Numbered from the stretch's first letter, positions 9,668 through 62,186 are shown. The stretch: 64,000 nucleotides of DNA from an uncultured Eubacteriales bacterium (GCA_963632615.1 CAVGVF010000001.1:72636-136635); one strand, 5' to 3'. Notes: generated by a model from the sequence alone, not told the origin. Numbers and translations are program-made.

Positions 9668-10875
9668 CAGTTCGCCTTCGGAGCAGAATATTTAGGAGCC
9701 AGCAAGTAATATTTACCGGCAGAATTCATCCGTCCGGCCTCAGCCAAAGCCTCTTCGCCGTGCCCCCAAAAATAGTCGCCGCGCACCACGCCCTTAATTG
9801 CGCTGCCGATATCTTGCGCAAACACAACTTTTTCTATTTTGCCGTTATCCGGATTTACCGTATCCAGCCACAGCATTGCTCCCAGCGGTATAAAACGATT
9901 ATCCACCGCCATGCTGCGCCCGGCGGTTAAAGATAAGCCGTAAGCCCCGACCGGACCATCAGCGTCTACCACCCGCTGAAAAATAAAACGTTCGTTTTCC
10001 GCCATAACTTCGGCTGCTTTCTGAGGATTTTTACGCAGCCACTCGCGGATTTTTGTCATAGAAGCTTCACTCGGCTTAATCAAGCCTTTTTGCAGCAAAA
10101 TAGAGCCGATTCCTTTAAATTTGCGCCCATTGCTGTCGGCAAAACCGATTCTCAATTCCGAACCGTCTTCCATAATGGCAATCGCCGAACCTTGAATCTG
10201 CATAAAATGAATATCCACCAAATCATCGCCCCACATCAAAACCGGAGCTTTGACGCCGTTTTGTTCAATTTGCCGGCGGTTATAGTATGGAATAAACTTG
10301 CTGCCTTCCACTCTGCCGACTAAACGGGTATTCGGCAGCGAACTGTCAAAATCTTTCAAATTTATTTCAATCAAATCATTCGGCTTGCCGTAAATCGGAA
10401 ATCTGTATTTAGCGCTTTTTTCAAAAGAAGCATGAATTGTCGCTTCATAATAAGAAGTAAACTTGCCTGTTGCATTGCCGTCCGCCGAAACTTCATACGG
10501 CGTAAATTCGCTTTCCAAAAATTTTTTCATCTGTGCGCCGCTGTTTATTCCGGCATCAGCAAATTTTTTGCAGGCTTTTCGATAATCCGCAGTTTTGATT
10601 TTTATGGACGAATTGTATAAATAGGTATTTTTATTTTTTAAAACATTTTGGCAGTTCTTGGCAAAAACCGGAATAACCTCGCCGAAATCATCTTGATTCC
10701 AGCCGGACAGCTGCGAAAAGCTTACCTTTTTTAACACAGCATTGCTTTCTTCTGCTGACGGGACACCGGATTCCTCTCTAAAACATCCGTTCAGCAGCAA
10801 CACCAAAGCCAAAGATAAAACAAAATTAAGCTGTTTTTTTAGTGGAAACCAGCACCCAATTATTGTTTTTTGCAT
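9667..10875 (-). CDS. mltA: membrane-bound lytic murein transglycosylase A
   Basis: Lipoprotein signal (LLLNGC); MltA-like length and C-terminal 3D-domain-like region. Conserved mltA / tim44-like / secB neighbourhood. Confidence 0.65.
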   Translation of the reverse strand: MQKTIIGCWFPLKKQLNFVLSLALVLLLNGCFREESGVPSAEESNAVLKKVSFSQLSGWNQDDFGEVIPVFAKNCQNVLKNKNTYLYNSSIKIKTADYRKACKKFADAGINSGAQMKKFLESEFTPYEVSADGNATGKFTSYYEATIHASFEKSAKYRFPIYGKPNDLIEINLKDFDSSLPNTRLVGRVEGSKFIPYYNRRQIEQNGVKAPVLMWGDDLVDIHFMQIQGSAIAIMEDGSELRIGFADSNGRKFKGIGSILLQKGLIKPSEASMTKIREWLRKNPQKAAEVMAENERFIFQRVVDADGPVGAYGLSLTAGRSMAVDNRFIPLGAMLWLDTVNPDNGKIEKVVFAQDIGSAIKGVVRGDYFWGHGEEALAEAGRMNSAGKYYLLAPKYSAPKAN

Positions 10876-11446
10876 TTACCATTCTTTCAAAAGTCCAAAC
10901 ATCGGTAATTTTCTGCACAAAGTTTTCATCGCCTTCCACAACTTCGCCCTGCGCGTTGCGCAGCAGATTAACCTGCTCGCTTACAAATTCTACCACAACT
11001 TTAATGCTGTTTTTCAAAAATCTGACGTCTTTAACTTCTTTCTTATCAAAACAGATAAAATCTACTTCCGATGTCATATTATTTTCTTTACGTTCCGCCA
11101 AAGCATTATTAAATGCTTCAAAAACTTTTTTACTGATTAAATCTTTAACCGGCTGCAAATCGCCTTTGCTGAAAGCCTGTAAAACCAATTCAAAAACTTT
11201 TCCGGCGCCCTGCAAAAACATTTCTTTATTAAATTCTTCTGCGGATTCAGCTTTTTCGGCAGCGTTATCCACAGCTTCTTTAGCTTTTACAATCTGCACC
11301 ACATTATCAACAACCGCTTCATCATTTTTATTTACCGGTTTCAAAACAACATGTACGCTTTTATCATCGCTTTCCTTGCCGAAAACGCTGTAAAGACGCA
11401 TTGCCACAAAAGCTACCAACACAAATAAAAAAATTAAATCAGTCAT
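10826..11446 (-). CDS. Tim44-like domain protein
   Basis: N-terminal transmembrane helix then a Tim44-like C-terminal domain. Conserved alphaproteobacterial neighbour of secB. Confidence 0.55.
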   Translation of the reverse strand: MTDLIFLFVLVAFVAMRLYSVFGKESDDKSVHVVLKPVNKNDEAVVDNVVQIVKAKEAVDNAAEKAESAEEFNKEMFLQGAGKVFELVLQAFSKGDLQPVKDLISKKVFEAFNNALAERKENNMTSEVDFICFDKKEVKDVRFLKNSIKVVVEFVSEQVNLLRNAQGEVVEGDENFVQKITDVWTFERMVNAKNNNWVLVSTKKTA

Positions 11447-16132: not shown

Positions 16133-16921
16133 TTAAAAACTAACTTGTACAGCATATCTGTATTTACTTGGATCTTTTCCTTTATAAGCAGAACATAACT
16201 CATTCATATCATTGAAATTCATATTATTCATACATCTTACGCCTTTAGTGCAATAGCGATTTCCCCAAACGCTATACATTTTTATATCTCCGGCCAGCGG
16301 TTCACGCCATATTTTCCGGACATTATCCTTAAAATTCAAAGCAGCTTCCATAAAGGCCTGACAGACTTTAGGGCTAGCACTGTCAAAACCTAACCAATAA
16401 AAGAAGCCGAACGCCCTGCTTCCTTTATTACCGCTTGAATATAAAGTTACACCAAAGCCGTGTGAATCTTGAAAAGCATTTCCCCGCACATATTTAAATT
16501 CTCTCGGCAGCATATTTAGACTTTTCATAGTATATACATAATTTGTTTCCGTTCCCCAGCCGCCGATTTCTTGATTATTAAAATCATTTCTAATTTGTAT
16601 AAAATTATAAAAAACCTCAGTCCAGGCATCTCTTAATTTAATAAATTTATACCGTTCCATAGCTTTAGAGTAACCGGCAATACCACCCACGCTAAGAACC
16701 GCGATAATCGCCAGCACGCCCAGCATTTCTATCATTGAGCGGCCAACACAATTACCTGTCACACTTGGCTTTGAGCGAAGCGAATTCGCCGAGTGTCCAG
16801 GATGGTACATCCGATTAAAAAACTTGCAACAAATACTAAACACGCGTCCCAAGCACCAGTCATTGCCGGACATGACGGAGAACAAACGAAAGCTAAAACC
16901 ATTATTCAAATTATTATTCAT
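16133..16921 (-). CDS. prepilin-type N-terminal cleavage/methylation domain protein (type IV pilin/pseudopilin-like), paralogue 1
   Basis: Contains G-RSMIEMLGVLAIIAVLSVGGIAGY with Glu at +5 and a hydrophobic helix. The ATG at 16921 sits behind RBS GGAGG in exactly the same leader context as paralogue 2. The leader peptide is unusually long (49 aa); an internal Met at 16810 would give a 23-aa leader. Confidence 0.6.
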   Translation of the reverse strand: MNNNLNNGFSFRLFSVMSGNDWCLGRVFSICCKFFNRMYHPGHSANSLRSKPSVTGNCVGRSMIEMLGVLAIIAVLSVGGIAGYSKAMERYKFIKLRDAWTEVFYNFIQIRNDFNNQEIGGWGTETNYVYTMKSLNMLPREFKYVRGNAFQDSHGFGVTLYSSGNKGSRAFGFFYWLGFDSASPKVCQAFMEAALNFKDNVRKIWREPLAGDIKMYSVWGNRYCTKGVRCMNNMNFNDMNELCSAYKGKDPSKYRYAVQVSF

Positions 16922-16945
16922 ATTTCTGAACCTCCTTAAACAAAT

Positions 16946-17126
16946 AAAAAAACAAAACCCACCAAAATGGCGGGCGGATGTTCAGAAACCGTACTATACT
17001 AAAACGGCTCGGCTTATTCAGCTCATAGCCTTATTTAGCCGACATCCGCTCTAGGCAGAAATCGGCATAAAAAAATTTTAAGTCGTTTATGCATAACGAC
17101 TAGTATAGAAAGGGTTTCTGACGCCC
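16946..17126 (-). promoter_or_regulatory. conserved structured 5' leader element (copy 1) ending in a terminator-like hairpin plus U-tract
   Basis: About 85% identical to 30390-30575 in reverse-complement orientation. Compensatory changes lie in two helices. Putative promoter TTGCTT-N18-TATACT at 17148-17177 on the minus strand. Confidence 0.6.
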
Positions 17127-17371
17127 TGCATTTTGCAATGCAGTTTTAGTATAGCTTATCGCCGTTAAAATAAGCAAGGAAAATTTGAAATTATATTTAC
17201 TGTAAATATAGTGATAAATAAAATAGAGAAAAAATTAAATGAAATCAGTACAAAACTTTCAGAAACTCGGATAGCGTGTATAAATGCGACGGAATTTTTA
17301 AGCGACGTGTACACAATAGTACACGAGCGCAAAAATCCCTAGCAGATACCAGCTAGACGAGTTTCATACCA

Positions 17372-18625
17372 CTATGAGTTCATGTTTTGGAAAAAGTCCG
17401 CATTATTCTTAGTCTGACGCAGCTTATCTAATAAAAATTCCATACCATCGGTCATACCCATTTGCATTAAGACACGACGCAGAACCCACATTTTTGTTAA
17501 GGTTGCACGGTCTACAAGCATTTCTTCTTTACGGGTGCCGGAACGGGTAATATCTATAGTCGGGAACAAACGCTTATCAGTAAGCTTTCTATCCAAAATG
17601 ATTTCTGAGTTACCGGTACCTTTGAACTCTTCAAAAATAACTTCATCCATACGCGAACCGGTATCAATCAAAGCTGTGGCGATAATCGTCAAAGAACCGC
17701 CTTCTTCCACATTGCGAGCTGCACCTAAAAGGCGTTTAGGACGCTGCAGAGCGTTGGCATCCACACCGCCGGTAAGCACCTTGCCTGATGACGGAACAAC
17801 CGCATTGTAGGCGCGTCCTAAGCGGGTTATGGAATCTAAAAGAATTACCACGTCTTTTTTATTTTCGACCAAACGCTTGGCTTTTTCAATGCACATTTCA
17901 GCCACCTGAACATGGCGGGTAGCCGGTTCATCAAAAGTAGAAGATATAACTTCGCCTTTAACCGAACGCGTCATATCCGTAACTTCTTCCGGGCGCTCGT
18001 CAATCAGCAGCACCATCAAATATACTTCCGGATGATTTGTAGAAATGGCATGGGCAATATTCTGCAGCATAACGGTTTTACCAGTACGCGGAGGAGCCAC
18101 AATCAAGCCGCGCTGGCCTTTGCCCTGCGGAGCGATTAAGTCAATCACGCGGGTAGTATAGTCCTTATCGCCGCAAATAATATCAAAATTCAGCTTTTCT
18201 GTCGGATATAGCGGCGTCAAGTTATCAAAATTTACACGCAGCTTAGATTTTTCCGGGTCGTCAAAGTTAATAGCATTAACTTTAGTCAAAGCAAAATAGC
18301 GTTCATTATCTTTTGGCGCGCGGATTTCGCCCTCTACAGTATCGCCTGTGCGCAGACCGAATTTCTTAACCTGAGCAGGAGATACATATATATCATCAGG
18401 GCTGGCCAGATAATTAGATTTAGATGAACGCAAAAAGCCGAACCCGTCCTGCAGAACTTCTATAACGCCGTCGCCGCAGATAACAGTATCTACTTCGGCC
18501 AATTTTTTCATAATGGCAAAAATCAAATCCTGAACACGCATAGAAGATGCGTCTTCAACTCCCAAATCCTCGGCCTGAGTCAACAGCTCTGTCGGAGATT
18601 TCTCCTTTAATTCCTTTAAATGCAT
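17372..18625 (-). CDS. rho: transcription termination factor Rho
   Basis: 417 aa; N-terminal RNA-binding domain, Walker A and hexameric RecA-like core. Confidence 0.95.
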
Positions 18626-19061
18626 ACTAACCTTAAATTTTTGTGATTGTTAAAAATTGAGCAATAAACATTGAAATGTTTGTTGCTATGCTTATATAAA
18701 ATATGCAAGCAAAAGTCAATCGTTTTTATGCACAAAAAATTACCCCTTTTAAAATTTAAAAAATAAATAGTTATTGTTATTTATCCCTGCGCAAAATGTG
18801 GATAAGATTCTATCCACAGACTTACTAACATTAACAAATTATTTAATAAGGTTAATAAAAAGTTAATGATTCAAGAAGTTAAAAAATAGTTAATAAATAT
18901 TTTCAACATATCTTAATAAAAAGGTTTAGATGTTAATAAGTTTGTATAACGTTTTTACAAAAAGTGAATACTTTGTTAAAAACTTTATAGAAGCTGAACT
19001 TATGCACATTTAAAGGTTTTATTGTGGATAAGATTCATAAGTTTTTGATATAAGGCAAAAG
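18626..19061. promoter_or_regulatory. candidate chromosomal replication origin (oriC)
   Basis: Perfect DnaA boxes TGTGGATAA at 18797-18805 and 19024-19032, an inverted 8/9 box at 18810-18818, and a partial TTATCC at 18781. TTAA-N7-TTAA at 18852-18866 and 18879-18893. AT-rich, between rho and coaE-dnaQ. Confidence 0.55.
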
Positions 19062-19649
19062 ATGAAAATTATAGCGATTACTGGTTCCATAGGCTGCGGT
19101 AAATCTTTTTTGGCGAATATTATACGGAGTCTCGGATATGTGGTTTATGATGCCGACAAGTGGGTTAAATATTTGTACTACCGTCCGGCGTTTTTAAAAG
19201 TTATTAAGCAAAATTTTCCGGAAGTTTTTGAGGCTGACGGTGTTTTTAATAAACGAAAATTAAGAAATTTGGTGTTTAATAATAATCAAGAGTTAAAACG
19301 GCTTGAAAAGTTAGTTCATCCCTTTTTAAAGCAAAAATTATTAAATGTTATCCGTAAAAATTCACAGACAAACCGAGTTTTCTTTTTTGATGCGGCTTTG
19401 CTGTTTGAAATGAAGTGGAATATTTATTGTCAGTCGGTTATTTTGGCTGATGTAGATAAAAATATTCAAAAACAGCGTGTTATGGCTCGCGATAATATAA
19501 GTGCTGAGGATTTTGAAAAAATTGTATCGGTGCAAATCGATAATGAGCAGAAAAAGCAATTTGCAGATGCGGTTATAAATACGGACAAGGCTGAAAATTT
19601 ACTGAAAGCCGAACTGATTGAAATTATAGAAGAGTTAATAAATGCGTGA
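19062..19649 (+). CDS. coaE: dephospho-CoA kinase
   Basis: P-loop ITGSIGCGKS; 195 aa. Confidence 0.85.
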   Translation: MKIIAITGSIGCGKSFLANIIRSLGYVVYDADKWVKYLYYRPAFLKVIKQNFPEVFEADGVFNKRKLRNLVFNNNQELKRLEKLVHPFLKQKLLNVIRKNSQTNRVFFFDAALLFEMKWNIYCQSVILADVDKNIQKQRVMARDNISAEDFEKIVSVQIDNEQKKQFADAVINTDKAENLLKAELIEIIEELINA

Positions 19650-20358
19650 GATATGTTTTGATACAGAAACAACAGGTTTTGATCCGGATACCGGCGACAG
19701 ATTGGTAGAAATCGGCGCGGTTGAGCTTATTAACCATTTGCCGACCGGTAAAATTTATCATGAATACATCAATCCGGAACGCGATGTGCCGGAAGAAGTT
19801 GTAAAAGTCCATGGTTTGGATAATGAATTTTTGAAAGATAAGCCGATATTCAGCAAAATAGCGCAGTCATGGGTTGATTTTATCGGCGATGACGGAATTT
19901 TGGTGGCGCATAACGCTGCATTCGACTTAAAATTTATTAACTTTGAACTAAAAAGATGCGGATTTCAAACCTATGATTGGGATAGGGTAGTTGATACCTT
20001 AGCTATTGCAAAGAATGAATTTCCTGGTGCCAGAAATAATTTGGATGCTTTGTGCCGGCGTTTTAATATAGATAACTCCGCACGTACTTTCCACGGCGCT
20101 TTATTGGATGCTCAGCTGCTGGCAGAAGTGTATCTGCAGCTTTTGGGCGGCGATGAGCCGAGTATAAACTTTGTTAAAGCTTCGGAGGAAACGGCTAATA
20201 AGCATGCCGAAAATATCAGCTTTGCGGCCGAAAATGTGCAGAAGCGCAGTTTTCCTTTGTCGGCTGAAGAACAGCAGGCTCATCTTGATTTTTTGAGTAA
20301 AAGTATAAAAAATGCCTTATGGCTGCAAGACACCGAAAGCGATGCTGAAAATGCTTAA
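19642..20358 (+). CDS. dnaQ: DNA polymerase III epsilon subunit (3'-5' exonuclease)
   Basis: Exo I/II/III motifs (FDTETTG, HNAAFD, H..LLDA); overlaps coaE by 8 nt. Confidence 0.85.
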   Translation: MREICFDTETTGFDPDTGDRLVEIGAVELINHLPTGKIYHEYINPERDVPEEVVKVHGLDNEFLKDKPIFSKIAQSWVDFIGDDGILVAHNAAFDLKFINFELKRCGFQTYDWDRVVDTLAIAKNEFPGARNNLDALCRRFNIDNSARTFHGALLDAQLLAEVYLQLLGGDEPSINFVKASEETANKHAENISFAAENVQKRSFPLSAEEQQAHLDFLSKSIKNALWLQDTESDAENA

Positions 20359-21619
20359 ACAGTTGGATTATGTCTATAATACTTATATAAACAAAAGAAT
20401 GCTGATTCTGCTGGCATTGGGATTTACCAGCGGCTTTCCTTTTTTATTGGTGTTCGGCACACTCAGCTTTTGGCTTAAAGATTTAGACATATCCTATACT
20501 TTAATCGGGGCTTTTTCTTTGGTTAAAATCCCCTACTCTTTAAAATGGGCTTGGTCGCCGCTGCTTGATAATGTTAAGCTGCCGGTTTTATATAAACTTG
20601 GACGGCGCCGTTCCTGGGCTGTTTTTATTCAGTTTTTGCTATTTTGTTCTTTGGCTGCAATGGCTTTCACAAATCCGGAAATTCATACGCTGCACATGGC
20701 TTTATTTGCATTTATCGCCAGTTTTTTATCAGCTTCACAGGATATTGTTTTAGATGCTTACCGTGTGGAAAGCTTTGAAGATGAACCGGAAAAACAGGCA
20801 TCCGGCGTGGCTATATATGTGCTGGGCTATCGTTTGGGCTTGATTTTTTCCGGAGCCGGAGCAATTTATATGGCTTCGGTTTTAAGCTGGCCGGAAGTTT
20901 ATTTGATTATGGCTTGCGGTTTGTTTGTAGGGTTTGTGGCGATTCTCATGGCTAAAGAGCCGCAAAAATATCAATATAAAAAGTATAAATTAAAGCTTAA
21001 AGACAGTATTGAGTTTGTTAAAAATTCTATAGTAAATCCGTTTAAAGATTTTGCAAAACGCCAGCATTGGTATTGGATTTTATTGTTTATTTTTACCTAT
21101 CGTCTGAGCAATGCTTATTTTGCGCCGATGAGTTTTCCTTTTTATGTGGATTTAGGCTTTACTAAAGCGGAAATTGCTTCGGTTATCAAAATTTACGGAA
21201 TGATTGCCGCTATTCTGGGCGGTTTAAGCGGCGGCCTGATTGTTATGAGATTCGGTTTGAAAAACAGCTTGCTGCTGTTTGGCCTGACACAGTGCCTGAC
21301 TACTTTTTTGTTTGCCGTTCAAGCCCGATACGGGCATAATATGCCGCTGTTTATAACCATAATTACTTTAGAGAACTTTTCTTCCGGTTTGGCAACAACA
21401 GCTTTGGTGGCCTATATTTCATCATTGTGCAATAAATTGTATACGGCAACGCAGTATGCGCTTTTATCATCGGTTATGAGTTTGTCGCGCGATATATTCT
21501 CTTCAACCAGCGGATTGCTGGCTCAATATGTTTCTTGGAATGTATTTTTTATAATCAGCGGCTGTTTGAGCCTGCCGAGCTTAATTATTGTCTGGTTTTG
21601 CCTGAAAAAGGATAAATAG
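20342..21619 (+). CDS. ampG: MFS muropeptide permease AmpG-like
   Basis: 12-TM MFS protein whose N-terminus aligns with AmpG (ILLALGFTSGFPF). Start chosen at the Met overlapping the dnaQ stop; the track ORF starts at 20312. Confidence 0.7.
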   Translation: MLKMLKQLDYVYNTYINKRMLILLALGFTSGFPFLLVFGTLSFWLKDLDISYTLIGAFSLVKIPYSLKWAWSPLLDNVKLPVLYKLGRRRSWAVFIQFLLFCSLAAMAFTNPEIHTLHMALFAFIASFLSASQDIVLDAYRVESFEDEPEKQASGVAIYVLGYRLGLIFSGAGAIYMASVLSWPEVYLIMACGLFVGFVAILMAKEPQKYQYKKYKLKLKDSIEFVKNSIVNPFKDFAKRQHWYWILLFIFTYRLSNAYFAPMSFPFYVDLGFTKAEIASVIKIYGMIAAILGGLSGGLIVMRFGLKNSLLLFGLTQCLTTFLFAVQARYGHNMPLFITIITLENFSSGLATTALVAYISSLCNKLYTATQYALLSSVMSLSRDIFSSTSGLLAQYVSWNVFFIISGCLSLPSLIIVWFCLKKDK

Positions 21620-32140: not shown

Positions 32141-32749
32141 CTACATCAAATTGTGAATATTGTATTCGTCATAGCCCTCATAATAGTAGCTGACATCAAT
32201 ACCTTTCATAAAAACTTCGCGCTCGTTGATTTTATCCGTGAGGGCGTTTTGCAGCAAATGTTTGATTTCTATATCTTTAATCGGACTTCTTTCCATGGCG
32301 GAAAGGTAATCCGCCTTATCAATTTTATTCCAATCCACGACTTTTTTCAGTTCTTTTTTAAATATTAAATCAAGCCAGATTCTAGTCGCCCGCCCGTTTC
32401 CCTCTCTAAACGGGTGGGCAACGTTCATTTCCACATATTTTTCCACGATTTCATCAAAAGTTGATTGCGGCATTTTATCTATTTGCTTTAGTGATTGCGC
32501 TAAATACATAACCGGAGCAAACCGAAAATTGCTTTTAGCAATGTTGACGGTGCGGAGCTTGCCGGCAAAATCGTAAATATCTTCAAACAAATACTTATGA
32601 ATTTGCTTAAGACCGCTAAAAGTGCCGACTTTTATTTTCTCAATTTTTCCGCTGTCAAAGAGTTTTTTAGCTTTGATTTTGCTTATTTTCTCTTCAGCTT
32701 TGTTCAGTTCTATTTGGTCCGTGATATTTAATTTATTTTCTAAAACCAT
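32141..32749 (-). CDS. fic: Fic family protein, class III (C-terminal inhibitory helix)
   Basis: Fic motif HPFREGNGRATR and C-terminal S-YYY-EG (SxxxEG) inhibitory motif; 202 aa, the NmFic-like size. Confidence 0.85.
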   Translation of the reverse strand: MVLENKLNITDQIELNKAEEKISKIKAKKLFDSGKIEKIKVGTFSGLKQIHKYLFEDIYDFAGKLRTVNIAKSNFRFAPVMYLAQSLKQIDKMPQSTFDEIVEKYVEMNVAHPFREGNGRATRIWLDLIFKKELKKVVDWNKIDKADYLSAMERSPIKDIEIKHLLQNALTDKINEREVFMKGIDVSYYYEGYDEYNIHNLM

Positions 32750-32768: not shown

Positions 32769-35700
32769 TTAGAACTTATAGCCTAAATTGAACAGATAAT
32801 AAACATTGCTCTTTTGTTCAAGCGGAGCGTTTACAGTCGCGCTGAGCGAAAGTTTTTTATAGTCGTACTGCGCCTTTACAGTCAATAAACCGCTGTCGCG
32901 CTGCAAACGGTTGCTGTTGATTTGATATGAGCCAAGCATATTGTCCATGGTCACCATCGTTGAATATTTGCTGCCGAATTCATGGAAATAACGCCCGCCG
33001 GCAGTCAGCAAAACAGACTGTTCTTTGCCGAGGTCAAAATCTTTCTTAATATCCATACCGATAACAGATTGAACTGATGTAACTTTGTCGCTGTCGGCTT
33101 TAAGTCCGCCGTTATTTTCTTTTAAGCCGTCAACTTTTACTTCAGTGATATTAGCGCCGGCAACCGGTTCAAGCTGCGCGATGTCAAGGTCTATAGTTTG
33201 GCGGGCTTCAGCGTCAATACCATAGTAGTAGTTGGTTAAATCAGCCTTATAGGCTTTATCCACGCCGCTGCGGCTGTAGTGACCCTTGCCGAAACCGATT
33301 TTAGGCTTAGCCATAGCGCGGAAATTATCATTGCTATAAGTCAGCGGAGCAAACACTTCCAGCACATTGTTATAACGAGATGAATCGTCATCAAAATCGC
33401 TGTCGCTGCGAGCCGCCGCCGCACCGAAACCTGCACGCCAGTTATTGGCAATTTGATAGTCGCTGAAACCGTAAACAGCTGTAACCTTGTCTTTATAGCC
33501 CGAAACATTGTGTTTGCCGTCAAACTCTTGCTGATAAGCCAAAACATTAACTTTAGCACGGCTTATTTCATTTGTTTGCGCCAAAATATCGTCATTGGCC
33601 GCGCGGTTGATATTGGCCAGCAAATCTAAGTCTTGTTTCGCCAAATTCGGAATCATGCTAAAGCCTAACTCGCGGTTTATAGCCGTATCAAAAGCCGAAG
33701 CAGTAGCCATACCTTTTAAGGTATTGAAAACGCCCTCGCCTTTTTGCGCTGCATAGTTTGTGCTTAAATATGCCGCCAGCTCTTTGTTGGCAACAGTTTC
33801 ATCAAACGATTTCATAGTCATAATTACGTCGGTGTTGCCGGATTCGTTAGCGGCTTTTTCAGCATTAAACATATAAGAGCCGGAAACCACATTTAGACCT
33901 GCATCTTTGCCGATAAATGAGTTATCGTTGCGGTAGGTCGTTTCAAATCCGCTTTGGGTAATATCCGCATCGGCTGTAACCGTGCCTTTTAAGGCCGGAG
34001 CTTTATAAGTTCCGTTTTTGCTGATGGCAATAACACCGGAATCTTTTGTTGAAGCATCAAAATCAAAAACATCATTATAGCTTACGGTGCCGTGATTTTT
34101 AAACACAGAGTTGTTTTGCACCATCATAAATCCGGAGCCTGACTGAGTTGACGTGCTTTCTTCACAGTCCATGCCGCTGCACAGTTCAGCACCGTTGACG
34201 GCATCTATAATGCCGTTATTGGTTGCGGTTCCGCCTTCATTTACGATAATGCCGTAAGATGTGCCGGATTGATTATTTTGGTTTATATAAATTCTTCCGT
34301 CGCTGTCGTTGGTAAAGGTTCCGCCTGCAACTCTTACGCCGGCTGAATTTGTACCGTAAACATGAATTTGGCCTTTATTGGTAACTTCGCCTTTTTCAAT
34401 ATAAATACCGGTGCCGCGGTCAACAAAATCTGTAATAATCACATTTCCGGAATCATCAAAACTGCCGGTGCCGATAGTAATCAGCCCGCTGTTTTCAAAA
34501 TTAGCTTCTTCGCCGGTAACTTTTACACCGTAGCCGTTATTGCCGATAACAGTTATATTGCCGGTGTTTTTGCTTTCTCCGCCGCTGACAGACATAGCCG
34601 TGCTGCCGGCTCCCGTCACTTTGATGTTTGAATTGTTGGTAGTTGTTCCGGCTGTTTCAATGCCGGTGCTGTAGTTTGTGCCGACTTCAATAGAGCCGTT
34701 GTTCTCAACAGTTCCTTCATCCGAAACAGAAACAGCCGTATTGCCGCTTCCGCTGTTGTTGCTGCCCAAAACCAGCTCAATGTTGCTGTTGTTGGTAAAA
34801 GTGCCTTTGCCGGCTATAACCGCTGTGCTGTTACTTGTGTTATTCAGGCGCAAAGTGCCGTTGTTGGTAATTTTTGTGCCTGTGCCGCCTGACGAGGCGT
34901 CAATGATGGTGCCTTTTTCAGTAATAGATATCTGCACATTGTCATTGACCGTTAAAGAAGCATTATCCATCAGTTTCGCTAAAGTTCCCTGTTCAAAGCT
35001 CATGCTTTTTTTCAAGGTTAAATCGCCGACTACCAGAAAATATGTCATGGTGGAAGCGGCTTCGGTGCTGCAATTTTCATCTGTAGTCGGATCGCAGATA
35101 TTAACGTTGCCGATATTGTCAATCACGGCTTTGCCGCTGATTTGGAATACGGTGGCGTTAGTGCCGAAAATTTTAATAATATTGTTTTTTATAACAGCGC
35201 CGTCCTGCAGTTCGCCGGTTCCGGCCGAATAAATGCCGATATTGTTATCTCCGTAAAGATTGATAACGCCGTTATTATATATATAGCTGTTTCCGGTGGC
35301 GTAAATGCCGAACGAATATTTGCCGTTTACGTTTATTACACCGGTTTTGTCGTTGATAACGTTGGCAATTCCGCTTGCATCGCTGGCCATGCCTACAGAA
35401 TAATCTGTTCCGACATCAATGCTGCCTTGATTCGTCATTTTTGCCGTGGAAATAACATCTTTATCCATATACATGCCGGCATTGTTGAAATTAGTGCCGT
35501 TTGAAGTCAAAATGATTTTACCGGTATTGGTTGCCGTACCTTGTTTTGAAGATACAGTCATTGCCGAGGTATGCGCCGATGACAGATTGATTGTACCGGA
35601 GTTGGTTATGGTTTCGGTTTCGGATGAGGCAACGGATGAGGTGGATGACGGAGATTTTGTGTTCATCACGCTTTGCTTTACGGTTAAAGTGAATTTGTCG

Positions 35701-37865
35701 GCCAAAGTGGCTGCTTCGCTGGACGAGCCGGAGCCTGACGAACCGGAAGAGCCGGATGATGAAGATTCATCATTCAGAGTGGCATCGTAAATGATGGTGC
35801 CGGCATTTACCAAGTTACTGTAATTTCCGCTGAAAACATCGGTGCCGATGGCGTTTTTATAAACATGGATGGTGCCGTTGTTTATCAGATTTGTTCCGCC
35901 GCTGTAGTCATTTCGGAGGGCTGTCGATTTATTTGAATAAATGTTAATCTGTCCGTTATTTACCAAAGATGTCAGAGTACTATCGCCGGAGCCGTACATG
36001 GCGATATTGTTGGTATAGCGGGTATTGTCGCTGGAACCCAGAGTAATTGTTCCGTTTTTATCATTCAGCAATGTTCCGCCGTTATATGAAGCCATTCCGA
36101 AGCCGTTGCTGGCATTTAACTGAATATTGCCTTTGTTGGTAACTGTTTGCTTGGTTGTGGTATATAGTCCGGATACCGAACCCGAACCTTCAACTGCAAG
36201 CATACCGTAGGTCATGCGCTGGTTATCGCCGTTAGTCTGAATGGTAATGTTTCCGGTGTTGGTAATGCTTCCGCTGTGAACAGACTGCATGCCGGCGGCA
36301 ACGGCAACAGAGTCTGATGAGCTTCCGGATTCGGAACTGTCATCTAAAGTAATATTGATTTTTCCGCTGTTGGTTGCCGTTGTATTGGCGTCTGCCCGCA
36401 TTCCGACAATTCCGCCCAAGCCTTTGCGCAAAGTTTTGGTTGTGTCAAAGGTGTATTGCCCCGTATATCCCAAATCTATGATACCGCTGTTGCTCAAAAC
36501 AGATTTATCGGCTCTTTGAATATTTTTAGAACCATTTAAAAATCCATCGTCCAAATAGCTTCCCATACCGATGATATTCACTTTGATTTCCGAGGCAGCG
36601 GCTCCGGCATCGCCGGCGCTGAGTTTTATGGTGCCGCTGTTTGAAGCTGTGTTGGTTTGATTGATGGCTTGCGAACCGGTATTCAGTATCATTGTTTCCA
36701 TACCGATAATGGTGCCGGATACGGATGTAACTTCCTTGGAACTGCTGTCGGAATTTTCATCTTGAGCAAAAATACCGTTCAGAATGCCGCCCGAAGAACT
36801 GCCGTTTTCAGAATCATCTTTGGTCGGGTCGCTGATTGCTTTAATGGCCGAACCGTTAATTTCTCCGGTATTTATAATCTGCGAGCCGTTATCGGCATAC
36901 ATACCGATAATCGTGTTGTTTTCGGTATATCCGGAAAAATTGAGGTTGATACCGTTGGCATCAGGGTCTTGGATAACCCCTTTTCCGTTATTGTAGGCAA
37001 TGGAATTATTGCTGGCAATCATCGCCACTGAATTATTAAACGCGTCAACATTTATATAGCCGTTGTTTGTAACCGTGCTTTTGCGGATTGCCGCCATTGC
37101 GGCCGAGCCTTCTCCGGCGGATATTTTAGTGTTCAGGCTGTTTGTGTATGAGCCGCCGTCAAGGGCTTCCAAGCCGACATCCATATATTTGCCGGCTTCC
37201 AGTACATTTTTATTGAAGTTAATTTTAGCGATTTCCGCTGTTTTGGTGTTTTTTATGTTTAATAAGCTGCTGTTTACGGCTGTTCCGCTGGTTGATTTTG
37301 CCACAGAGCCTTGCGAGCCTAAGGTTTCGCCGATATAGTTATTAGTTTCGGTTTCAGAGCTGCTGCTGCCGCCCCCGCCGCCTCCGCTCATTGCTAATGC
37401 GGCAATACCTCCGCCGACAGCCAAGCCGCCCAGCAGCCACCAGGTTGTAGAGGAGATTTTATATTTTTCTTTGCCCATTGTTCCATAAGCTTCACGAGGG
37501 GTTGCGGTTACGGAAACAGCTTTGGAATTGTTTACAAAATCTTCATAATATTCTATTTTTTGCACGCATGGATGGCGAGGGTTAGCTCCGGCGGCGCGGA
37601 AGGCATTGTAGGTGTAGGCATCTCTGTTTTGGGCGGCAACGCAAAGTCCGGTGTCGCCGTTTTGGTTGACACTGTCAATATTCATACCGCGGCGGACAGA
37701 AGCTCTCAAAGCTTCAACTTCGCCGTTTTGCGCCAGATTATACATTTTATTGAAAGACAGCGGCGACAAATTATAGGCTTTAGCCTCAGGCGCGGCTATA
37801 GTCAGGCTGAAAGACGCCAAAGACAGTAAACCAACGGTTTTTAGTATTATTTTGTTATTAAACAT
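32769..37865 (-). CDS. large autotransporter (type Va secretion) with beta-helical repeat passenger
   Basis: Sec signal MFNNKIILKTVGLLSLASFSLTIAAPEAKA; Gly/Ser linkers; dozens of degenerate N(N/S/T)G(T/N)I beta-helix repeats; C-terminal ~280-aa beta-barrel ending ...LFNLGYKF. Confidence 0.8.
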   Translation of the reverse strand: MFNNKIILKTVGLLSLASFSLTIAAPEAKAYNLSPLSFNKMYNLAQNGEVEALRASVRRGMNIDSVNQNGDTGLCVAAQNRDAYTYNAFRAAGANPRHPCVQKIEYYEDFVNNSKAVSVTATPREAYGTMGKEKYKISSTTWWLLGGLAVGGGIAALAMSGGGGGGSSSSETETNNYIGETLGSQGSVAKSTSGTAVNSSLLNIKNTKTAEIAKINFNKNVLEAGKYMDVGLEALDGGSYTNSLNTKISAGEGSAAMAAIRKSTVTNNGYINVDAFNNSVAMIASNNSIAYNNGKGVIQDPDANGINLNFSGYTENNTIIGMYADNGSQIINTGEINGSAIKAISDPTKDDSENGSSSGGILNGIFAQDENSDSSSKEVTSVSGTIIGMETMILNTGSQAINQTNTASNSGTIKLSAGDAGAAASEIKVNIIGMGSYLDDGFLNGSKNIQRADKSVLSNSGIIDLGYTGQYTFDTTKTLRKGLGGIVGMRADANTTATNSGKINITLDDSSESGSSSDSVAVAAGMQSVHSGSITNTGNITIQTNGDNQRMTYGMLAVEGSGSVSGLYTTTKQTVTNKGNIQLNASNGFGMASYNGGTLLNDKNGTITLGSSDNTRYTNNIAMYGSGDSTLTSLVNNGQINIYSNKSTALRNDYSGGTNLINNGTIHVYKNAIGTDVFSGNYSNLVNAGTIIYDATLNDESSSSGSSGSSGSGSSSEAATLADKFTLTVKQSVMNTKSPSSTSSVASSETETITNSGTINLSSAHTSAMTVSSKQGTATNTGKIILTSNGTNFNNAGMYMDKDVISTAKMTNQGSIDVGTDYSVGMASDASGIANVINDKTGVINVNGKYSFGIYATGNSYIYNNGVINLYGDNNIGIYSAGTGELQDGAVIKNNIIKIFGTNATVFQISGKAVIDNIGNVNICDPTTDENCSTEAASTMTYFLVVGDLTLKKSMSFEQGTLAKLMDNASLTVNDNVQISITEKGTIIDASSGGTGTKITNNGTLRLNNTSNSTAVIAGKGTFTNNSNIELVLGSNNSGSGNTAVSVSDEGTVENNGSIEVGTNYSTGIETAGTTTNNSNIKVTGAGSTAMSVSGGESKNTGNITVIGNNGYGVKVTGEEANFENSGLITIGTGSFDDSGNVIITDFVDRGTGIYIEKGEVTNKGQIHVYGTNSAGVRVAGGTFTNDSDGRIYINQNNQSGTSYGIIVNEGGTATNNGIIDAVNGAELCSGMDCEESTSTQSGSGFMMVQNNSVFKNHGTVSYNDVFDFDASTKDSGVIAISKNGTYKAPALKGTVTADADITQSGFETTYRNDNSFIGKDAGLNVVSGSYMFNAEKAANESGNTDVIMTMKSFDETVANKELAAYLSTNYAAQKGEGVFNTLKGMATASAFDTAINRELGFSMIPNLAKQDLDLLANINRAANDDILAQTNEISRAKVNVLAYQQEFDGKHNVSGYKDKVTAVYGFSDYQIANNWRAGFGAAAARSDSDFDDDSSRYNNVLEVFAPLTYSNDNFRAMAKPKIGFGKGHYSRSGVDKAYKADLTNYYYGIDAEARQTIDLDIAQLEPVAGANITEVKVDGLKENNGGLKADSDKVTSVQSVIGMDIKKDFDLGKEQSVLLTAGGRYFHEFGSKYSTMVTMDNMLGSYQINSNRLQRDSGLLTVKAQYDYKKLSLSATVNAPLEQKSNVYYLFNLGYKF

Positions 37866-46550: not shown

Positions 46551-47267
46551 ATGTTAGTACGTTTATATATAAAAGATAAATTGGAAAAAAACGGGCAGAT
46601 TATTTGTCTGGATGAAAAACAGTCGCATTATTTGGCAAATGTGCTGCGTCTGCGCGCCGGCGATGAATTTTTTGTGTTTGACGGCAGCAGCGGTGAATAT
46701 AAAGCGGCAATTACAGACTTAAACAAACGCGCGGTTACAGCCGTTTTGACTGAAAAAGTATGTGAAATGCAGAAATCTCCGGATATTTGGCTGTTGTTTG
46801 CTCCGCTCAAAAAAGACAAAACTGATATTGTTATTCAAAAAGCGACAGAATTGGGAGTCCGTAAAATAATACCGGTGCAGACAGCTTATACCAATGCTGA
46901 AAAAGTCAGAACCGAACGTTTTGAGCTGCAGGCCGCCGAGGCTGCCGAACAATGCCGCCGATTGGATGTTCCGGATATTTCAGCCGCTTTATCATTGGAT
47001 AAAGCTTTAGAAAACTGGGATAATGAGCGGACGCTGTTCTTTTTGGATGAACGCGGGCTGGGAAAAAAAGTTTGCGAAACAATGCTGAATTCGCCAAAAG
47101 CCGCTGTTTTGGTCGGGCCGGAAGGCGGTTTCAGCTCAGCCGAAGCCGAAAAGCTGCGCAAGCTGCCGTTTGTTAAAAGCATTTCTTTAGGTTCAAGAAT
47201 TTTGCGGGCAGAAACCGCAGTGATTGCCGCCCTTTCCTGCTGGCAGTCAATAAATGGAGATTGGTAA
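46551..47267 (+). CDS. rsmE: 16S rRNA (uracil1498-N3)-methyltransferase RsmE
   Basis: 238 aa with RsmE-like N-terminal PUA-like and SPOUT-fold C-terminal regions. Confidence 0.65.
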   Translation: MLVRLYIKDKLEKNGQIICLDEKQSHYLANVLRLRAGDEFFVFDGSSGEYKAAITDLNKRAVTAVLTEKVCEMQKSPDIWLLFAPLKKDKTDIVIQKATELGVRKIIPVQTAYTNAEKVRTERFELQAAEAAEQCRRLDVPDISAALSLDKALENWDNERTLFFLDERGLGKKVCETMLNSPKAAVLVGPEGGFSSAEAEKLRKLPFVKSISLGSRILRAETAVIAALSCWQSINGDW

Positions 47268-47941
47268 GGATGAAATTTTTAATTGCAGATGACCATGAGT
47301 TATTTTTACAAGGTTTGGAATTTATTTTGAAAAAACAATATCCGCAGACTGAAATAGTTTTGACTAACAGTTATACCGGTATTTTTGAAATTTTGGAAAA
47401 GCAAAAGGATTTTGATTTAATCATTACCGATTTGGCAATGCCTGGTGCAAATTGGCTTGAAGCCATCGGCCGCATTCATTCGACTTGTCCGGAAGTGCCG
47501 ATAATTATTATTTCTGCCGTCTTTGATCCGGAAATTTTGCAAAAAACCTTTGATATAGGCGTATCCGGATATGTTTCAAAGGCTTTCCCTAACAATATTA
47601 TAATGAGTGCAATCAATCTGGTTATAGCCGGAGGCATGTATATTCCGCCGGAATTGCTGCAGCTTAATTTGCAAAATCGAACTCTGCCGATACGCGAACT
47701 GATTGCCGATTTGGATGACAATAAAAAGCCCGTAAAAGAAAATAACGTCTTGACTCCGCGTCAAACCGAAGTTGTGCAGTGCTTGTCCGAAGGGCTTTCA
47801 AATAAGCAAATTGCCTATAAGCTTGGTTTGAGCGAAGGAACAGTTAAAATTCATATAACGCTGCTAATGAGGGCTTTAGATGTCAGCAACCGTGTGCAGG
47901 CTGTGAATGAAGCCCGCCGCCGCGGCTTATTGAAAGAATAG
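47261..47941 (+). CDS. two-component response regulator, LuxR/FixJ (NarL) family
   Basis: Receiver domain (LIADDH...D in DLAMPG) plus C-terminal LuxR HTH (LTPRQTEVVQCLSEGLSNKQIA). Confidence 0.8.
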   Translation: MVRMKFLIADDHELFLQGLEFILKKQYPQTEIVLTNSYTGIFEILEKQKDFDLIITDLAMPGANWLEAIGRIHSTCPEVPIIIISAVFDPEILQKTFDIGVSGYVSKAFPNNIIMSAINLVIAGGMYIPPELLQLNLQNRTLPIRELIADLDDNKKPVKENNVLTPRQTEVVQCLSEGLSNKQIAYKLGLSEGTVKIHITLLMRALDVSNRVQAVNEARRRGLLKE

Positions 47942-52779: not shown

Positions 52780-52854
52780 GGTCCCATCGTCTAATGGTTA
52801 GGACATCACCCTTTCACGGTGGCAATATGGGTTCGAGTCCCGTTGGGATCACCA
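52780..52854 (+). tRNA. tRNA-Glu (anticodon TTC)
   Basis: GGTCCCATCGTCTAATGG...CCTTTCACGG...GGTTCGAGTCCCGTTGGGATCACCA. Promoter TTGACC-N17-TATATA upstream. Confidence 0.85.
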
Positions 52855-52890: not shown

Positions 52891-53090
52891 ATATATCTGT
52901 AATTCTGGGGCTGGAACCCATAAAAATGTGTTTGACCTGCAGTCGGCAGGCAGACGTGTATGCCGGTTGCGAACTTGTGAGCAAGCCGACAAAGGCGGCG
53001 AAGCGTCAGCGCAGCCAGTCCCGTTGCGCTATTATCGATATTTCAAACAGTATTCTGCCTTTTGGTGGGGATTTTTATATATCTGTAATT
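52869..53090 (+). repeat. 36-bp imperfect direct repeats (52869-52904 and 53055-53090) flanking a GC-rich ~150-bp insert
   Basis: CTGCCTTTTGGCGGGGCTTTTTATATATCTGTAATT versus CTGCCTTTTGGTGGGGATTTTTATATATCTGTAATT. Confidence 0.6.
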
Positions 53091-53101
53091 TATGATTTAC
53101 A

Positions 53102-53638
53102 TTAGTTTCTTTGAGAATTATTTTTTATTCTTAACAACAAAGGTGTCAAAATGTCTTTTTTTAGAATTTCTGTAGCTTCATTATTAAAATAATTTTCGGT
53201 ATCTTTTTGTTGATAGGCACCTTTTCTTTTATAAGAAAATTTAAAACCATTTTTATTTAAAAGTCTTTGCAACATTGGTAAATTTCTATCAGATACCGTT
53301 ATAAGAGGTTTATTCGTATTTAATACTTCACAACTTTTTCTTATGATTTTTCTTGCAATTCCTCTACCTCTGCAATCTTCTCTTACAAATAAACAGCAAA
53401 TTTTCTTTTCTTCATCAGTATCTTTTAAAAGAGCGACTCCTATTGGAGTATTTTCTTTAATATAAGCTATAATAATTTTTCTTTTTCCGCTTTTTAATTC
53501 TGGAAAAAATTTGTTAAACAGCCATTCATTATGTTTTGGATAAGTATCATTGATTGATTTTGTCAGTTTTGCAATATTTTTATAAAGTACCATATCATTT
53601 ACAGAAAATTTATTGATGGCTTTAATTAGATAATTCAT
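53102..53638 (-). CDS. GNAT-family N-acetyltransferase
   Basis: Acetyl-CoA binding motif RGRGIARKII; 178 aa; very low GC. Confidence 0.65.
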   Translation of the reverse strand: MNYLIKAINKFSVNDMVLYKNIAKLTKSINDTYPKHNEWLFNKFFPELKSGKRKIIIAYIKENTPIGVALLKDTDEEKKICCLFVREDCRGRGIARKIIRKSCEVLNTNKPLITVSDRNLPMLQRLLNKNGFKFSYKRKGAYQQKDTENYFNNEATEILKKDILTPLLLRIKNNSQRN

Positions 53639-53710
53639 TTTTATTCTCTTTACAAAGTTAAATTTTTATTTAGTATAACAAATATTACTAATACAATCAA
53701 GGAGATAAAA

Positions 53711-54046
53711 ATGCAAAAATTAAATGTAAAAGAAAAGTACTATAATATGCTGAAACAAGGGACAAAAACAATAGAATTGAGATTATTTGATGACAAGAGA
53801 AAAAATATAAAAGTTGGTGATATCATTGAGTTTTCAAATAATTCTGATTCAGAAGACACTTTTTTAGCACAAGTTGTAAAATTGCATCGAGCAGATAATT
53901 TTGAAGAATTATGTAATAAAATTAATTGTCACAATGCTGGTTTTGAAACAAATCAAGACCTTATGAATGTATTGGAAGAATTTTATTCTTTAGAGCGCCA
54001 AAAAGAATTAGGCGTTGTCGGTATTGAAATTAAGAAAATTGATTAA
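53711..54046 (+). CDS. ASCH (PUA-like) domain protein
   Basis: 111 aa. N-terminus KEKYYNMLKQGTKTIELRL is typical of the ASCH beta-barrel. RBS AAGGAG. Confidence 0.45.
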   Translation: MQKLNVKEKYYNMLKQGTKTIELRLFDDKRKNIKVGDIIEFSNNSDSEDTFLAQVVKLHRADNFEELCNKINCHNAGFETNQDLMNVLEEFYSLERQKELGVVGIEIKKID

Positions 54047-54100
54047 CATGCAAAAAATGCCTCTTTATTAGTATCTGACTAATTTTGAGGCATTTTTAAC

Positions 54101-54286
54101 TTATCTTACGCACATGCAATAAAGTGTTATTACAATCATTGCAATAGCATACCATTTTGTTATTTTCCAAGAAGTTTTTTTATCTTCTTTATAACGGTTT
54201 TCATATTCTACCTTGTTTGTCATTTCAAGCAATCCAAGATAAATGAATGTGCAAACCAAAATTGCTATAAAATAAGCAGCTGCCAT
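54101..54286 (-). CDS. small two-TM hypothetical membrane protein
   Basis: 61-aa ORF with two hydrophobic helices; weak. Confidence 0.25.
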   Translation of the reverse strand: MAAAYFIAILVCTFIYLGLLEMTNKVEYENRYKEDKKTSWKITKWYAIAMIVITLYCMCVR

Positions 54287-54451
54287 AATTATTAAATATT
54301 AAAAATAAAAAACTGCTTGGATTATAATATAATGTCAATATTTTGTCAAATTATATTATTTGAGATAAAAAAAGCCAAAGATAAAACAGTTTTAAGAATT
54401 TGTATTTTACAAAAATAAAAAATCGCCTCTTAAAAGGCGATTTTCATGAAA

Positions 54452-54475
54452 TGATGCCATTAGCAAGAAAGTCCA
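54452..54475 (-). pseudogene. orphan 3'-terminal fragment of tRNA-Thr with duplicated terminator
   Basis: Minus strand ...tcttgctaatggcaTca matches the tRNA-Thr 3' end apart from CCA to TCA. Part of a ~55-bp direct repeat (54416-54472 versus 54596-54652). Confidence 0.55.
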
Positions 54476-54595
54476 TCGCCTGACGGCTCACGACATCTCC
54501 GCCGCCTGCGCATAAGTTCGCTTGGCGATGTCGATTTCGGACTTTCGGATTGCGTTCGCAATCTTTCGCAAGTCTTCTTCTTGCTTAATTAAAAC

Positions 54596-54626
54596 ATAAA
54601 AATCGCCTCTTAAAAGGCGATTTTTA
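54596..54626 (-). terminator. intrinsic terminator after tRNA-Thr
   Basis: Minus strand atcgccttttaagaggcgat followed by a T-run. Confidence 0.65.
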
Positions 54627-54631
54627 TGAAA

Positions 54632-54706
54632 TGGTGCCATTAGCAAGAATCGGACTTGCGACCCCGTCATTACCAATGACGTGCTCTACCACTGAGCTAT
54701 AATGGC
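54632..54706 (-). tRNA. tRNA-Thr (anticodon GGT)
   Basis: Minus strand GCCATTATAGCTCAGTGGTAGAGCACGTCATTGGTAATGACGGGGTCGCAAGTCCGATTCTTGCTAATGGCACCA. Confidence 0.85.
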
Positions 54707-54865
54707 GTGACTAAACTAAAAACATAATACTTAACAGATGACGGGGTCTGCTCCCCCGCTTGTCGGTCTAGGCTCGCCGCGGTCGTTTGCACTTTCCTTG
54801 CTTGCCAAGCCCTTCCAAGGCGTTACAGACAAAAATAACAAAAAATTGTTATTTTTGCTTAGCCG

Positions 54866-54901
54866 CTACCAATGACGTGCTCTACCACTGAGCTATAATG
54901 G
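54866..54901 (-). pseudogene. orphan 5' half of tRNA-Thr (positions 1-36, breakpoint in anticodon loop)
   Basis: Minus strand GCCATTATAGCTCAGTGGTAGAGCACGTCATTGGTA is identical to the first 36 nt of the intact gene 160 bp away. Confidence 0.7.
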
Positions 54902-55081
54902 CAACGCTCAAAACTCATCAACTGAAACATTTCAGCAACAAATTTCATATAACAACATACAGATATGATTTTAAAAATCAATGTATTTTTTTATAAAAGT
55001 GCAAAATTTATGCAAAATTTTTACCATTTACCGAATATAGTAGCCCATGATTATTGTAAAAATAAAGAGTTAGAGGGAAAA

Positions 55082-62125: not shown

Positions 62126-62186
62126 TTCTGTTGATTTTTTGTCAAAAACATGCTATTATTCCCAAAAATGTATATAAGGATTTGCA

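Follow-up and report, generated by a model that had tools for sequence, protein, structure and literature searches.

The question raised by the intergenic region between rho and coaE-dnaQ in a 64,000-nucleotide stretch of contig CAVGVF010000001.1 (hereafter 'the window', along whose whole length all coordinates count) is whether it constitutes the chromosomal origin of replication (oriC) of an uncultured alphaproteobacterium of ~40% GC. The original prediction, made from the sequence, had proposed exactly this for an AT-rich gap of 436 bp carrying DnaA boxes and CtrA-type boxes in an origin-type neighbourhood devoid of hemE. Direct reading and pattern searches confirm a gap of that length, with 23% GC as compared with ~40% in the window, and the skew switch, box clustering, conservation and synteny described below support the proposal: we consider it very likely that the rho/coaE gap is the oriC of this bacterium, positionally orthologous to the junction which holds the Caulobacter origin, Cori. 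Origins of this Cori/Rickettsia type are as such known. The modest twist lies in the loss of every classical flanking gene and in boxes that are unusually near the E. coli consensus. The gap and its boundary genes are as follows.

17372-18625, - strand: rho, left boundary, transcribed away from the gap (NCBIfam TIGR00767, E=2e-206)
18626-19061, no strand: candidate oriC, the entire rho/coaE intergenic region, 436 bp, 23% GC
19062-19649, + strand: coaE, right boundary, transcribed away from the gap
19642-20358, + strand: dnaQ, right of coaE (coaE-dnaQ, 19062-20358, by NCBIfam TIGR00152 and TIGR01406)

The two latter genes belong to a coaE-dnaQ-ampG run on the + strand (19062-21619, NCBIfam). 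Two sets of relatives serve for comparison, that is, the metagenome-assembled genome (MAG) BRZ_KS__bin114 (L001; Rho 93% and CoaE ~55% identical), which was the sole close reference from a Rho genome scan, and a graded series from a CoaE metagenome scan (L081-L091; CoaE 94% to 51% identical). Divergent rho and coaE neighbours are also found in L001, L082, L084, L090 and L091.

Skew, synteny and DnaA boxes at the rho/coaE gap

Replication-strand skew was measured as third-codon GC skew (GC3 skew) per gene, referred to the + strand, because raw GC skew partly follows gene strand; gene-orientation bias was dropped as an origin signal because the genes left of the gap lie on mixed strands. GC3 skew is negative in 19 of the 21 genes left of the gap (-0.20 for + strand and -0.15 for - strand genes) and positive in 33 of the 41 genes to its right (+0.10 and +0.22, respectively). 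The maximum-likelihood change-point coincides with the rho/coaE boundary (delta log-likelihood 84.6), a score reached by 8 of 5000 gene-order permutations, and the cumulative skew, which had been suggested as a check and was run here on the 64-kb window, has its raw G-C minimum at 18835, within the gap. At the homologous gap of five relatives the skew likewise changes sign, from -0.22 to +0.06 (L001), -0.14 to +0.25 (L082), -0.18 to +0.15 (L084), -0.04 to +0.17 (L088) and -0.02 to +0.20 (L091), and the duf299/rho junction of Bartonella, examined by the identical method as a positive control, switches from -0.21 to +0.46. Running from negative to positive, with G exceeding C on the strand that leaves the gap on both sides, the switch has the polarity of an origin, the reverse of what a terminus would show. 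Elsewhere in the window, a 1698-aa autotransporter (32769-37865, - strand), adjoined by a Fic-domain gene (32141-32749), exhibits an unusually strong GC3 skew (+0.46 on the + strand).

The gene neighbourhood leads to the same place. In 61 of 80 sampled alphaproteobacterial rho loci, with gene identities assigned by Pfam, an arm of composition dnaQ-coaE-(aroE)-maf-(duf299) faces a divergent arm (hemE)-(hemH)-(orf164)-rho across an AT-enriched gap of ~230-590 bp. The Caulobacter origin has been mapped at the hemE/duf299 junction (PMC6393856, PMC1914354), and rickettsial origins were predicted at that junction too (PMC1914354). In the window, rho and coaE-dnaQ represent the outer members of the two arms, and the 64 kb contain none of the inner genes hemE, hemH, duf299, maf and aroE, in agreement with the predicted origin-type neighbourhood without hemE; secB, a Tim44-like gene, mltA and smr, which are usual neighbours of dnaQ, lie 7-10 kb to the left. 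The junction varies among alphaproteobacteria (duf299/rho in Bartonella, duf299/orf164-rho in Bradyrhizobium-like and maf/rho in Rhodobacterales-like loci), and the window's clade is the extreme variant, with both arms trimmed to coaE/rho.

The third line of evidence is provided by the DnaA boxes and the GANTC sites that accompany them.

18726-18734, + strand: DnaA box 1, TTATGCACA, one mismatch, located 6 bp before the -35 element of rho
18797-18805, - strand: DnaA box 2, perfect, reading TGTGGATAA on the + strand (pattern search)
18806-18810, no strand: GANTC (GATTC), fused to box 2 within the palindrome spacer; conserved in close relatives only
18810-18818, + strand: DnaA box 3, CTATCCACA, one mismatch, inverted pair with box 2, starts 13 bp apart
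18868-18872, no strand: GANTC (GATTC), between TTAA sites A and B (see below)
18931-18939, - strand: weak DnaA box 6, TGTTAATAA; overlaps a GTTAA half-site and is part of the conserved block ATGTTAATAAGTTT
19000-19008, + strand: DnaA box 4, TTATGCACA, one mismatch
19023-19031, - strand: DnaA box 5, perfect, reading TGTGGATAA on the + strand, paired with box 4, starts 23 bp apart
19032-19036, no strand: GANTC (GATTC), fused to box 5 (repeat D3)

Chance levels for motifs in the gap were obtained from 2000 dinucleotide-preserving shuffles of the gap itself. The five DnaA boxes that are perfect or differ at one position compare with 0.13 expected (P<0.0005), the two perfect boxes with ~0, and the three GANTC sites with 0.29. 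Box density, the other check that could be run on the window, is likewise in favour of the gap: four of the window's six TTATNCACA sites lie inside it, i.e., in 0.7% of the 64 kb, and among the 14 intergenic regions of at least 150 bp it is the sole one with any DnaA or TTAA-N7-TTAA site, the other 13 having zero TTATNCACA and zero TTAA-N7-TTAA. Both perfect boxes had been noticed in the original prediction, the first at its exact position and the second with a position off by one; the repeated unit around them, then given as 16 bp, turned out to be an identical 14-mer, TGTGGATAAGATTC (18797-18810 and 19023-19036), the last five bases of which are a GANTC site. The 8-6-8 palindrome claimed for the first box is exact on direct reading (18797-18818, TGTGGATA-AGATTC-TATCCACA) and is made of boxes 2 and 3. 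Boxes 1 and 4, the IHF consensus described below and the GANTC sites abutting both perfect boxes are additional to what had been predicted. The window's third perfect DnaA box, TTATCCACA at 11265-11273, falls within the Tim44-like gene (10826-11446, - strand), in its 5' part and ~300 bp from the divergent secB start, and may mark a promoter regulated by DnaA or have arisen by chance.

Strict TTATNCACA boxes number only 0-2 at the orthologous junction in other alphaproteobacteria, and box counts alone can therefore not identify origins in GC-rich relatives. We also applied, at window scale, the seven in silico criteria of Ioannidis et al. (PMC1914354), all of which describe the gap: (i) homologous boundary genes, (ii) an intergenic length of 200-1000 bp, here 436 bp, (iii) DnaA boxes TTATNCACA along with IHF sites (WATCAN5WTR), here four TTATNCACA plus CTATCCACA and one IHF consensus, (iv) more such sites than in other intergenic regions, (v) more AT than the genome on average, (vi) stronger conservation among relatives than that of the genomic background and (vii) a GC-skew shift, with site number and skew minimum judged over 64 kb and not over the whole replicon.

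As for conservation, the gap is 93.6% identical to that of L082, as compared with 58-82% at four-fold sites, and 88.5% identical to that of L084, as compared with 45-58% at the four-fold sites of rho, coaE and dnaQ. Conservation so far above neutral sites indicates that the gap is under purifying selection. Lineages with CoaE ~51-60% identical mostly keep the layout (box 1, central inverted pair, right-hand pair) while the sequence drifts, some of these boxes being degenerate or missing in L087, L088 and L091. Box 1 is found ~100 bp from the rho ATG also in L001, L082, L084 and L090; an inverted pair of boxes, or box-like sequences, occupies the centre in every lineage aligned there, in degenerate form in L091 and L087; and the box 4/5 pair, incomplete or degenerate in L087 and L088, is kept in all others, with a spacing of 23 bp (24 bp in L090). 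The column of weak box 6 holds a true TGTGAATAA box in L091. Finally, L088 (CoaE ~60% identical) has mlaA-mlaC instead of rho, and the box-bearing region remains upstream of coaE.

The TTAA array, a proposed mechanism and rival readings

Between the two inverted pairs lies an array of TTAA motifs, in which motif search located both TTAA-N7-TTAA sites of the original prediction.

18852-18866, no strand: TTAA-N7-TTAA site A, reading TTAAC-N6-TTAAC on the - strand
18879-18893, no strand: TTAA-N7-TTAA site B; second copy of a 17-nt repeat unit (D2), with site A 27 bp away

These two sites compare with 0.31 expected from the shuffles (P=0.04 when taken alone), two GTTAA-N6-GTTAA with 0.01, and seven GTTAAWRA, all on the + strand and three of them exactly GTTAATAA, with 0.32. 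Across the 64-kb window TTAA-N7-TTAA is not enriched (7 versus 8 expected), and the case for the sites therefore rests on clustering and conservation. When six independent lineages are pooled, TTAA pairs 11 bp apart number 12 versus 1.5 expected (P<0.001), with spacings of 10 and 12 bp at background. What is conserved in the array are the cores and their spacing only: the N7 interior and the flanks vary, the orientation is mixed in L087 and L001, and the number of TTAA-N7-TTAA sites ranges from four in L001 and two in the window to none in L091.

TTAA-N7-TTAA is the consensus for CtrA (PMC1914354, PMC6393856), and the 11-bp-phased array fits this consensus better than it does oriented weak DnaA 9-mers. 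Given that the gap is oriC, control of initiation by CtrA is plausible, and we lean slightly towards it. Of the co-regulation by DnaA and CtrA that had been predicted, the sites stand, and 11-bp TTAA pairs are enriched across lineages; CtrA control itself is no more than plausible, and the window contains no ctrA gene.

The remaining features of the gap, several of which enter the mechanism proposed below, are listed here.

18660-18687, - strand: hairpin with 13-nt arms AGCAATAAACATT / AATGTTTGTTGCT, in the presumed rho leader (inverted repeat I6)
18691-18719, - strand: probable rho promoter, -35 TTGACT (18719-18714), 17-nt spacer, -10 TATAAG (18696-18691), recognised by eye
18746-18784, no strand: most AT-rich tract, 39 bp with at most 2 G/C per 30 bp, candidate DNA-unwinding element (DUE)
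18785-18792, no strand: GC cluster CCCTGCGC, right after the AT tract, followed by AAAA and then box 2
18950-18984, no strand: imperfect dyad cGTTTTTACAAA-N10-TTTGTTAAAAAC (also written GTTTTTACAAA-N10-TTTGTTAAAAAC), with a GTTAA half-site at 18975 (inverted repeat I2)
19038-19050, - strand: IHF consensus WATCAANNNNTTR, sequence TATCAAAAACTTA, adjoining box 5 inside the conserved block TAAGTTTTTGATAT

From this arrangement we infer a mechanism in which DnaA would occupy the five near-consensus boxes, namely the single box by the rho promoter and the inverted pairs at 18797-18818 and 19000-19031, and, weakly, box 6 at 18931. IHF would bend the DNA adjoining box 5, and the duplex would open in the 39-bp AT tract (18746-18784), beside the GC cluster and box 2. 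Transcripts of rho and of coaE-dnaQ would start within the origin and run outward, and phosphorylated CtrA, as the most likely binder of the phased central TTAA sites, would silence initiation as it does in Caulobacter.

Several observations weigh against this picture as a whole or against parts of it. Boundaries up to 2.5 kb on either side of the rho/coaE boundary score 75.5-80.1 as skew change-points, only 4.5-9 log-likelihood units worse, and with 64 kb covered a second or stronger skew minimum may exist elsewhere on the replicon. The rho promoter shares the conserved sequences, so that part of the conservation may serve transcription. A basal unwinding system is defined by a DnaA box of no more than two mismatches that has a minimum of three NAN trios at 0-16 nt from it (PMC8287927). 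Convincing runs of DnaA-trios were not found beside the boxes, where, under the strand geometry assumed, the best runs comprise one to three trios and the sole run of three overlaps another box. Concerning CtrA, the related lineage L091 is devoid of any TTAA-N7-TTAA site, and the 64-kb window contains no dnaA, ctrA, ccrM or ihf gene (Pfam or NCBIfam scans of its 62 open reading frames (ORFs) found no ctrA, ccrM, dnaA or hemE). Its single response regulator (47261-47941) is of the LuxR/GerE type, and an OmpR-type CtrA homologue was encountered neither in the window nor in the related loci examined; when the window and all 115 loci were searched by tblastn with a Caulobacter CtrA sequence, there was no match in the clade, a result which is not informative on the whole genome. 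CtrA is encoded by most, not all, alphaproteobacteria (PMC2877005), and in Brucella it does not bind the origin (PMC2877005). GANTC is unremarkable in the window as a whole (observed/expected 0.81 after allowing for dinucleotide content); not being specifically depleted, it provides no indirect sign of CcrM.

The alternative which survives best accepts the gap as oriC and reinterprets the array, which would then consist of low-affinity sites for DnaA-ATP (9-mers 2 bp apart with an 11-bp period) or recruit some other nucleoid- or origin-binding protein. In E. coli oriC, the array is made of 9-mers with 2-bp gaps and thus has an 11-bp period. The seven GTTAA sites of the gap run in the same direction and share GTTAAWRA, GTTAATAA agrees with GTGGATAA at six of eight positions, and the conserved block ATGTTAATAAG is aligned to the true TGTGAATAA box of L091, the lineage lacking TTAA-N7-TTAA; moreover, a ctrA gene was not demonstrated in the window and the loci examined. 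However, across lineages nothing persists but the TTAA cores at their 11-bp spacing, with mixed orientation in L087 and L001, which is better accommodated by CtrA recognition, both sites read TTAA-N7-TTAAC on the - strand and thus follow the extended CtrA consensus, and Caulobacter, Rickettsia and Wolbachia have origins at which CtrA sites were documented or predicted (PMC1914354). On balance we regard this alternative as possible but doubtful.

Considerably less probable is that the gap is a divergent promoter and regulatory region only, at which DnaA (perhaps along with CtrA) acts as a transcription factor for rho and coaE-dnaQ, with the origin located elsewhere. A good sigma-70-like rho promoter, identified by eye, lies 6 bp from box 1, boxes 4 and 5 are near the coaE start, the skew change-point is resolved to a few kb only, and in alphaproteobacteria DnaA is known to act as a transcription factor (PMC3193534). 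Regulation as sole function does not explain, however, why the window's other intergenic regions of at least 150 bp are free of DnaA boxes, why the skew minimum falls within the gap and the sign switch recurs at the homologous gap of five relatives, why the entire 436 bp are conserved, beyond the promoter elements, and why in position the gap is the orthologue of the origin mapped in Caulobacter (PMC6393856). A rearrangement breakpoint or replication terminus as the cause of the skew switch is barely credible: flanking synteny does vary (dnaE after rho in L001, mlaA-mlaC for rho in L088), but the negative-to-positive polarity is that of an origin and opposite to that of a terminus, the switch recurs at the homologous gap despite different flanks, and a terminus would not be expected to carry clustered DnaA boxes.

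Taking the rho/coaE gap as oriC, one may go a step further and speculate that the clade possesses a reduced origin of Cori type, which combines an unchanging scaffold (the single box plus the pairs at 13 and 23 bp) with a plastic TTAA centre and GANTC-fused boxes in TGTGGATAAGATTC, the fusion of GANTC to each perfect box being a trait of the window's own sub-lineage. We consider this generalization rather unlikely. If it were true, methylation-sensitive DnaA binding would constitute a lineage-specific timing device, and CtrA control would have been gained and lost repeatedly within one uncultured clade.

An oriC at the rho/coaE gap would in itself leave the understanding of how alphaproteobacterial origins function unchanged. 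It would nonetheless provide the origin position for a lineage known from MAGs and metagenome contigs only, which helps assembly orientation, peak-to-trough estimates of growth and annotation. It would also indicate that the ancestral origin junction outlasts the loss of every classical marker (hemE, hemH, duf299, maf and aroE), so that origin finders relying on hemE or on proximity to dnaA would need the rho and coaE-dnaQ arms as anchors. With five strong boxes and phased TTAA sites, the gap may moreover serve as a compact and well-conserved template for the sharing of an origin by DnaA and CtrA.

Further features of the gap, its relatives and the window

On the rho side of the gap, the leader hairpin is kept in L082 and L084, and the putative rho promoter is conserved in L082, L084 and L001. 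A consensus promoter and terminator scan of the gap stayed at chance level (3 observed versus 3.7 expected) and did not recover the rho promoter recognised by eye, because the scan demands T at the last -10 position. Rfam and tRNA scans revealed no known RNA in or beside the gap. In the candidate unwinding region, the block AAATTTAAAAAA..AATAG of the AT tract is conserved in L001, and the GC cluster CCCTGCGC is invariant in L082 and L084. The dyad at 18950-18984 consists of invariant or nearly invariant columns in a 13-sequence alignment and is among the most conserved origin blocks of the clade; it is not explained by the DnaA, CtrA or IHF consensus.

Downstream of rho (16133-17371), the window has a 262-aa ORF without Pfam or NCBIfam match, next to a motif-free gap of 450 bp (16922-17371); in L001 the position of this ORF is held by dnaE. 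The rearrangement in L088 (1364-4000) is located exactly at the rho side of its origin-like region, and an ankyrin-repeat protein, which hints at a host-associated lifestyle, adjoins mlaA-mlaC. Three contigs of the CoaE series (L081, L083 and L085; metaSPAdes, from different ERZ1034/1035 assemblies) end within the gap, 138-222 bp upstream of coaE, which may reflect strain heterogeneity or a change of coverage at the origin. An exact-protein look-up for CoaE returned one 4.3-kb Logan contig only (SRR13434653), with no replicon-scale context.

In the rest of the window, GGNCC is strongly depleted (20 versus 114 expected from dinucleotide content; observed/expected 0.18), as is CCNGG (0.37), which suggests restriction-modification pressure of the Sau96I/GGNCC type. 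The stretch 53000-54965, between tRNA-Glu (52780-52854) and tRNA-Thr (54632-54706), is of very low GC content (26% at 53-54 kb), encodes a GNAT acetyltransferase and small ORFs, and may be a small island. The 1.3 kb at 62126-63443 have no ORF of at least 60 aa, no Rfam match and five matches to the IHF consensus, and could represent a decayed gene, an unannotated RNA or a regulatory region.

Comparison with known origins

With E. coli oriC, the gap shares oppositely oriented high-affinity TTATCCACA-type boxes at its two ends, the succession of AT tract, GC-rich spacer and TGTGGATAA box, which is that of DUE and R1, and an IHF site by the end box. In contrast to E. coli, it has neither GATC/SeqA sites nor 13-mer repeats, the central array is of TTAA-N7-TTAA type, and the flanking genes are others.

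Among alphaproteobacteria, Bartonella resembles the window in having a rho arm without hemE and hemH, with rho flanking an AT-rich gap (585 bp, 22% GC) at which GC3 skew switches strongly. It differs in that duf299-maf-aroE are kept on the other arm, and that the gap holds one strict TTATNCACA box and one TTAA-N7-TTAA.

The origins predicted for Rickettsia, Wolbachia, Ehrlichia and Anaplasma (Brassinga; Ioannidis et al. 2007, PMC1914354) are likewise regions of ~400 bp in AT-rich genomes, with TTATNCACA boxes, TTAA-N7-TTAA, an IHF consensus and boundary genes reshuffled relative to Caulobacter (PMC1914354), and they were found by the same seven in silico criteria which also describe the window's gap. 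These origins retain hemE as a boundary, e.g., COG1253/hemE in Wolbachia, whereas the boundary genes in the window are rho and coaE. The lineage of the window has not been assigned to the Rickettsiales; the reference nearest to it is an unclassified alphaproteobacterial MAG.

Cori of Caulobacter crescentus differs from the gap in that (i) it is bounded by hemE and duf299, both of which are, like hemH, maf and aroE, absent from the window, (ii) it carries moderate G-boxes and weak W-boxes, whereas those of the window are near-consensus TTATNCACA boxes of E. coli type, and (iii) it has five TTAA-N7-TTAA sites, as compared with two full sites plus half-sites in the window. Yet both sit at the junction of an arm ending in coaE-dnaQ and an arm ending in rho, and Cori (PMC6393856) is likewise an AT-rich region of ~400-500 bp with DnaA boxes, several TTAA-N7-TTAA, IHF and GANTC sites, a weak DnaA box overlapping a CtrA-type site and an outward promoter inside the origin. 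Specifically, in Cori a CtrA site overlaps a G-box and the hemE promoter fires outward from the origin (PMC6393856), and the half-site over weak box 6 in the window would be the counterpart of that CtrA site over the G-box.

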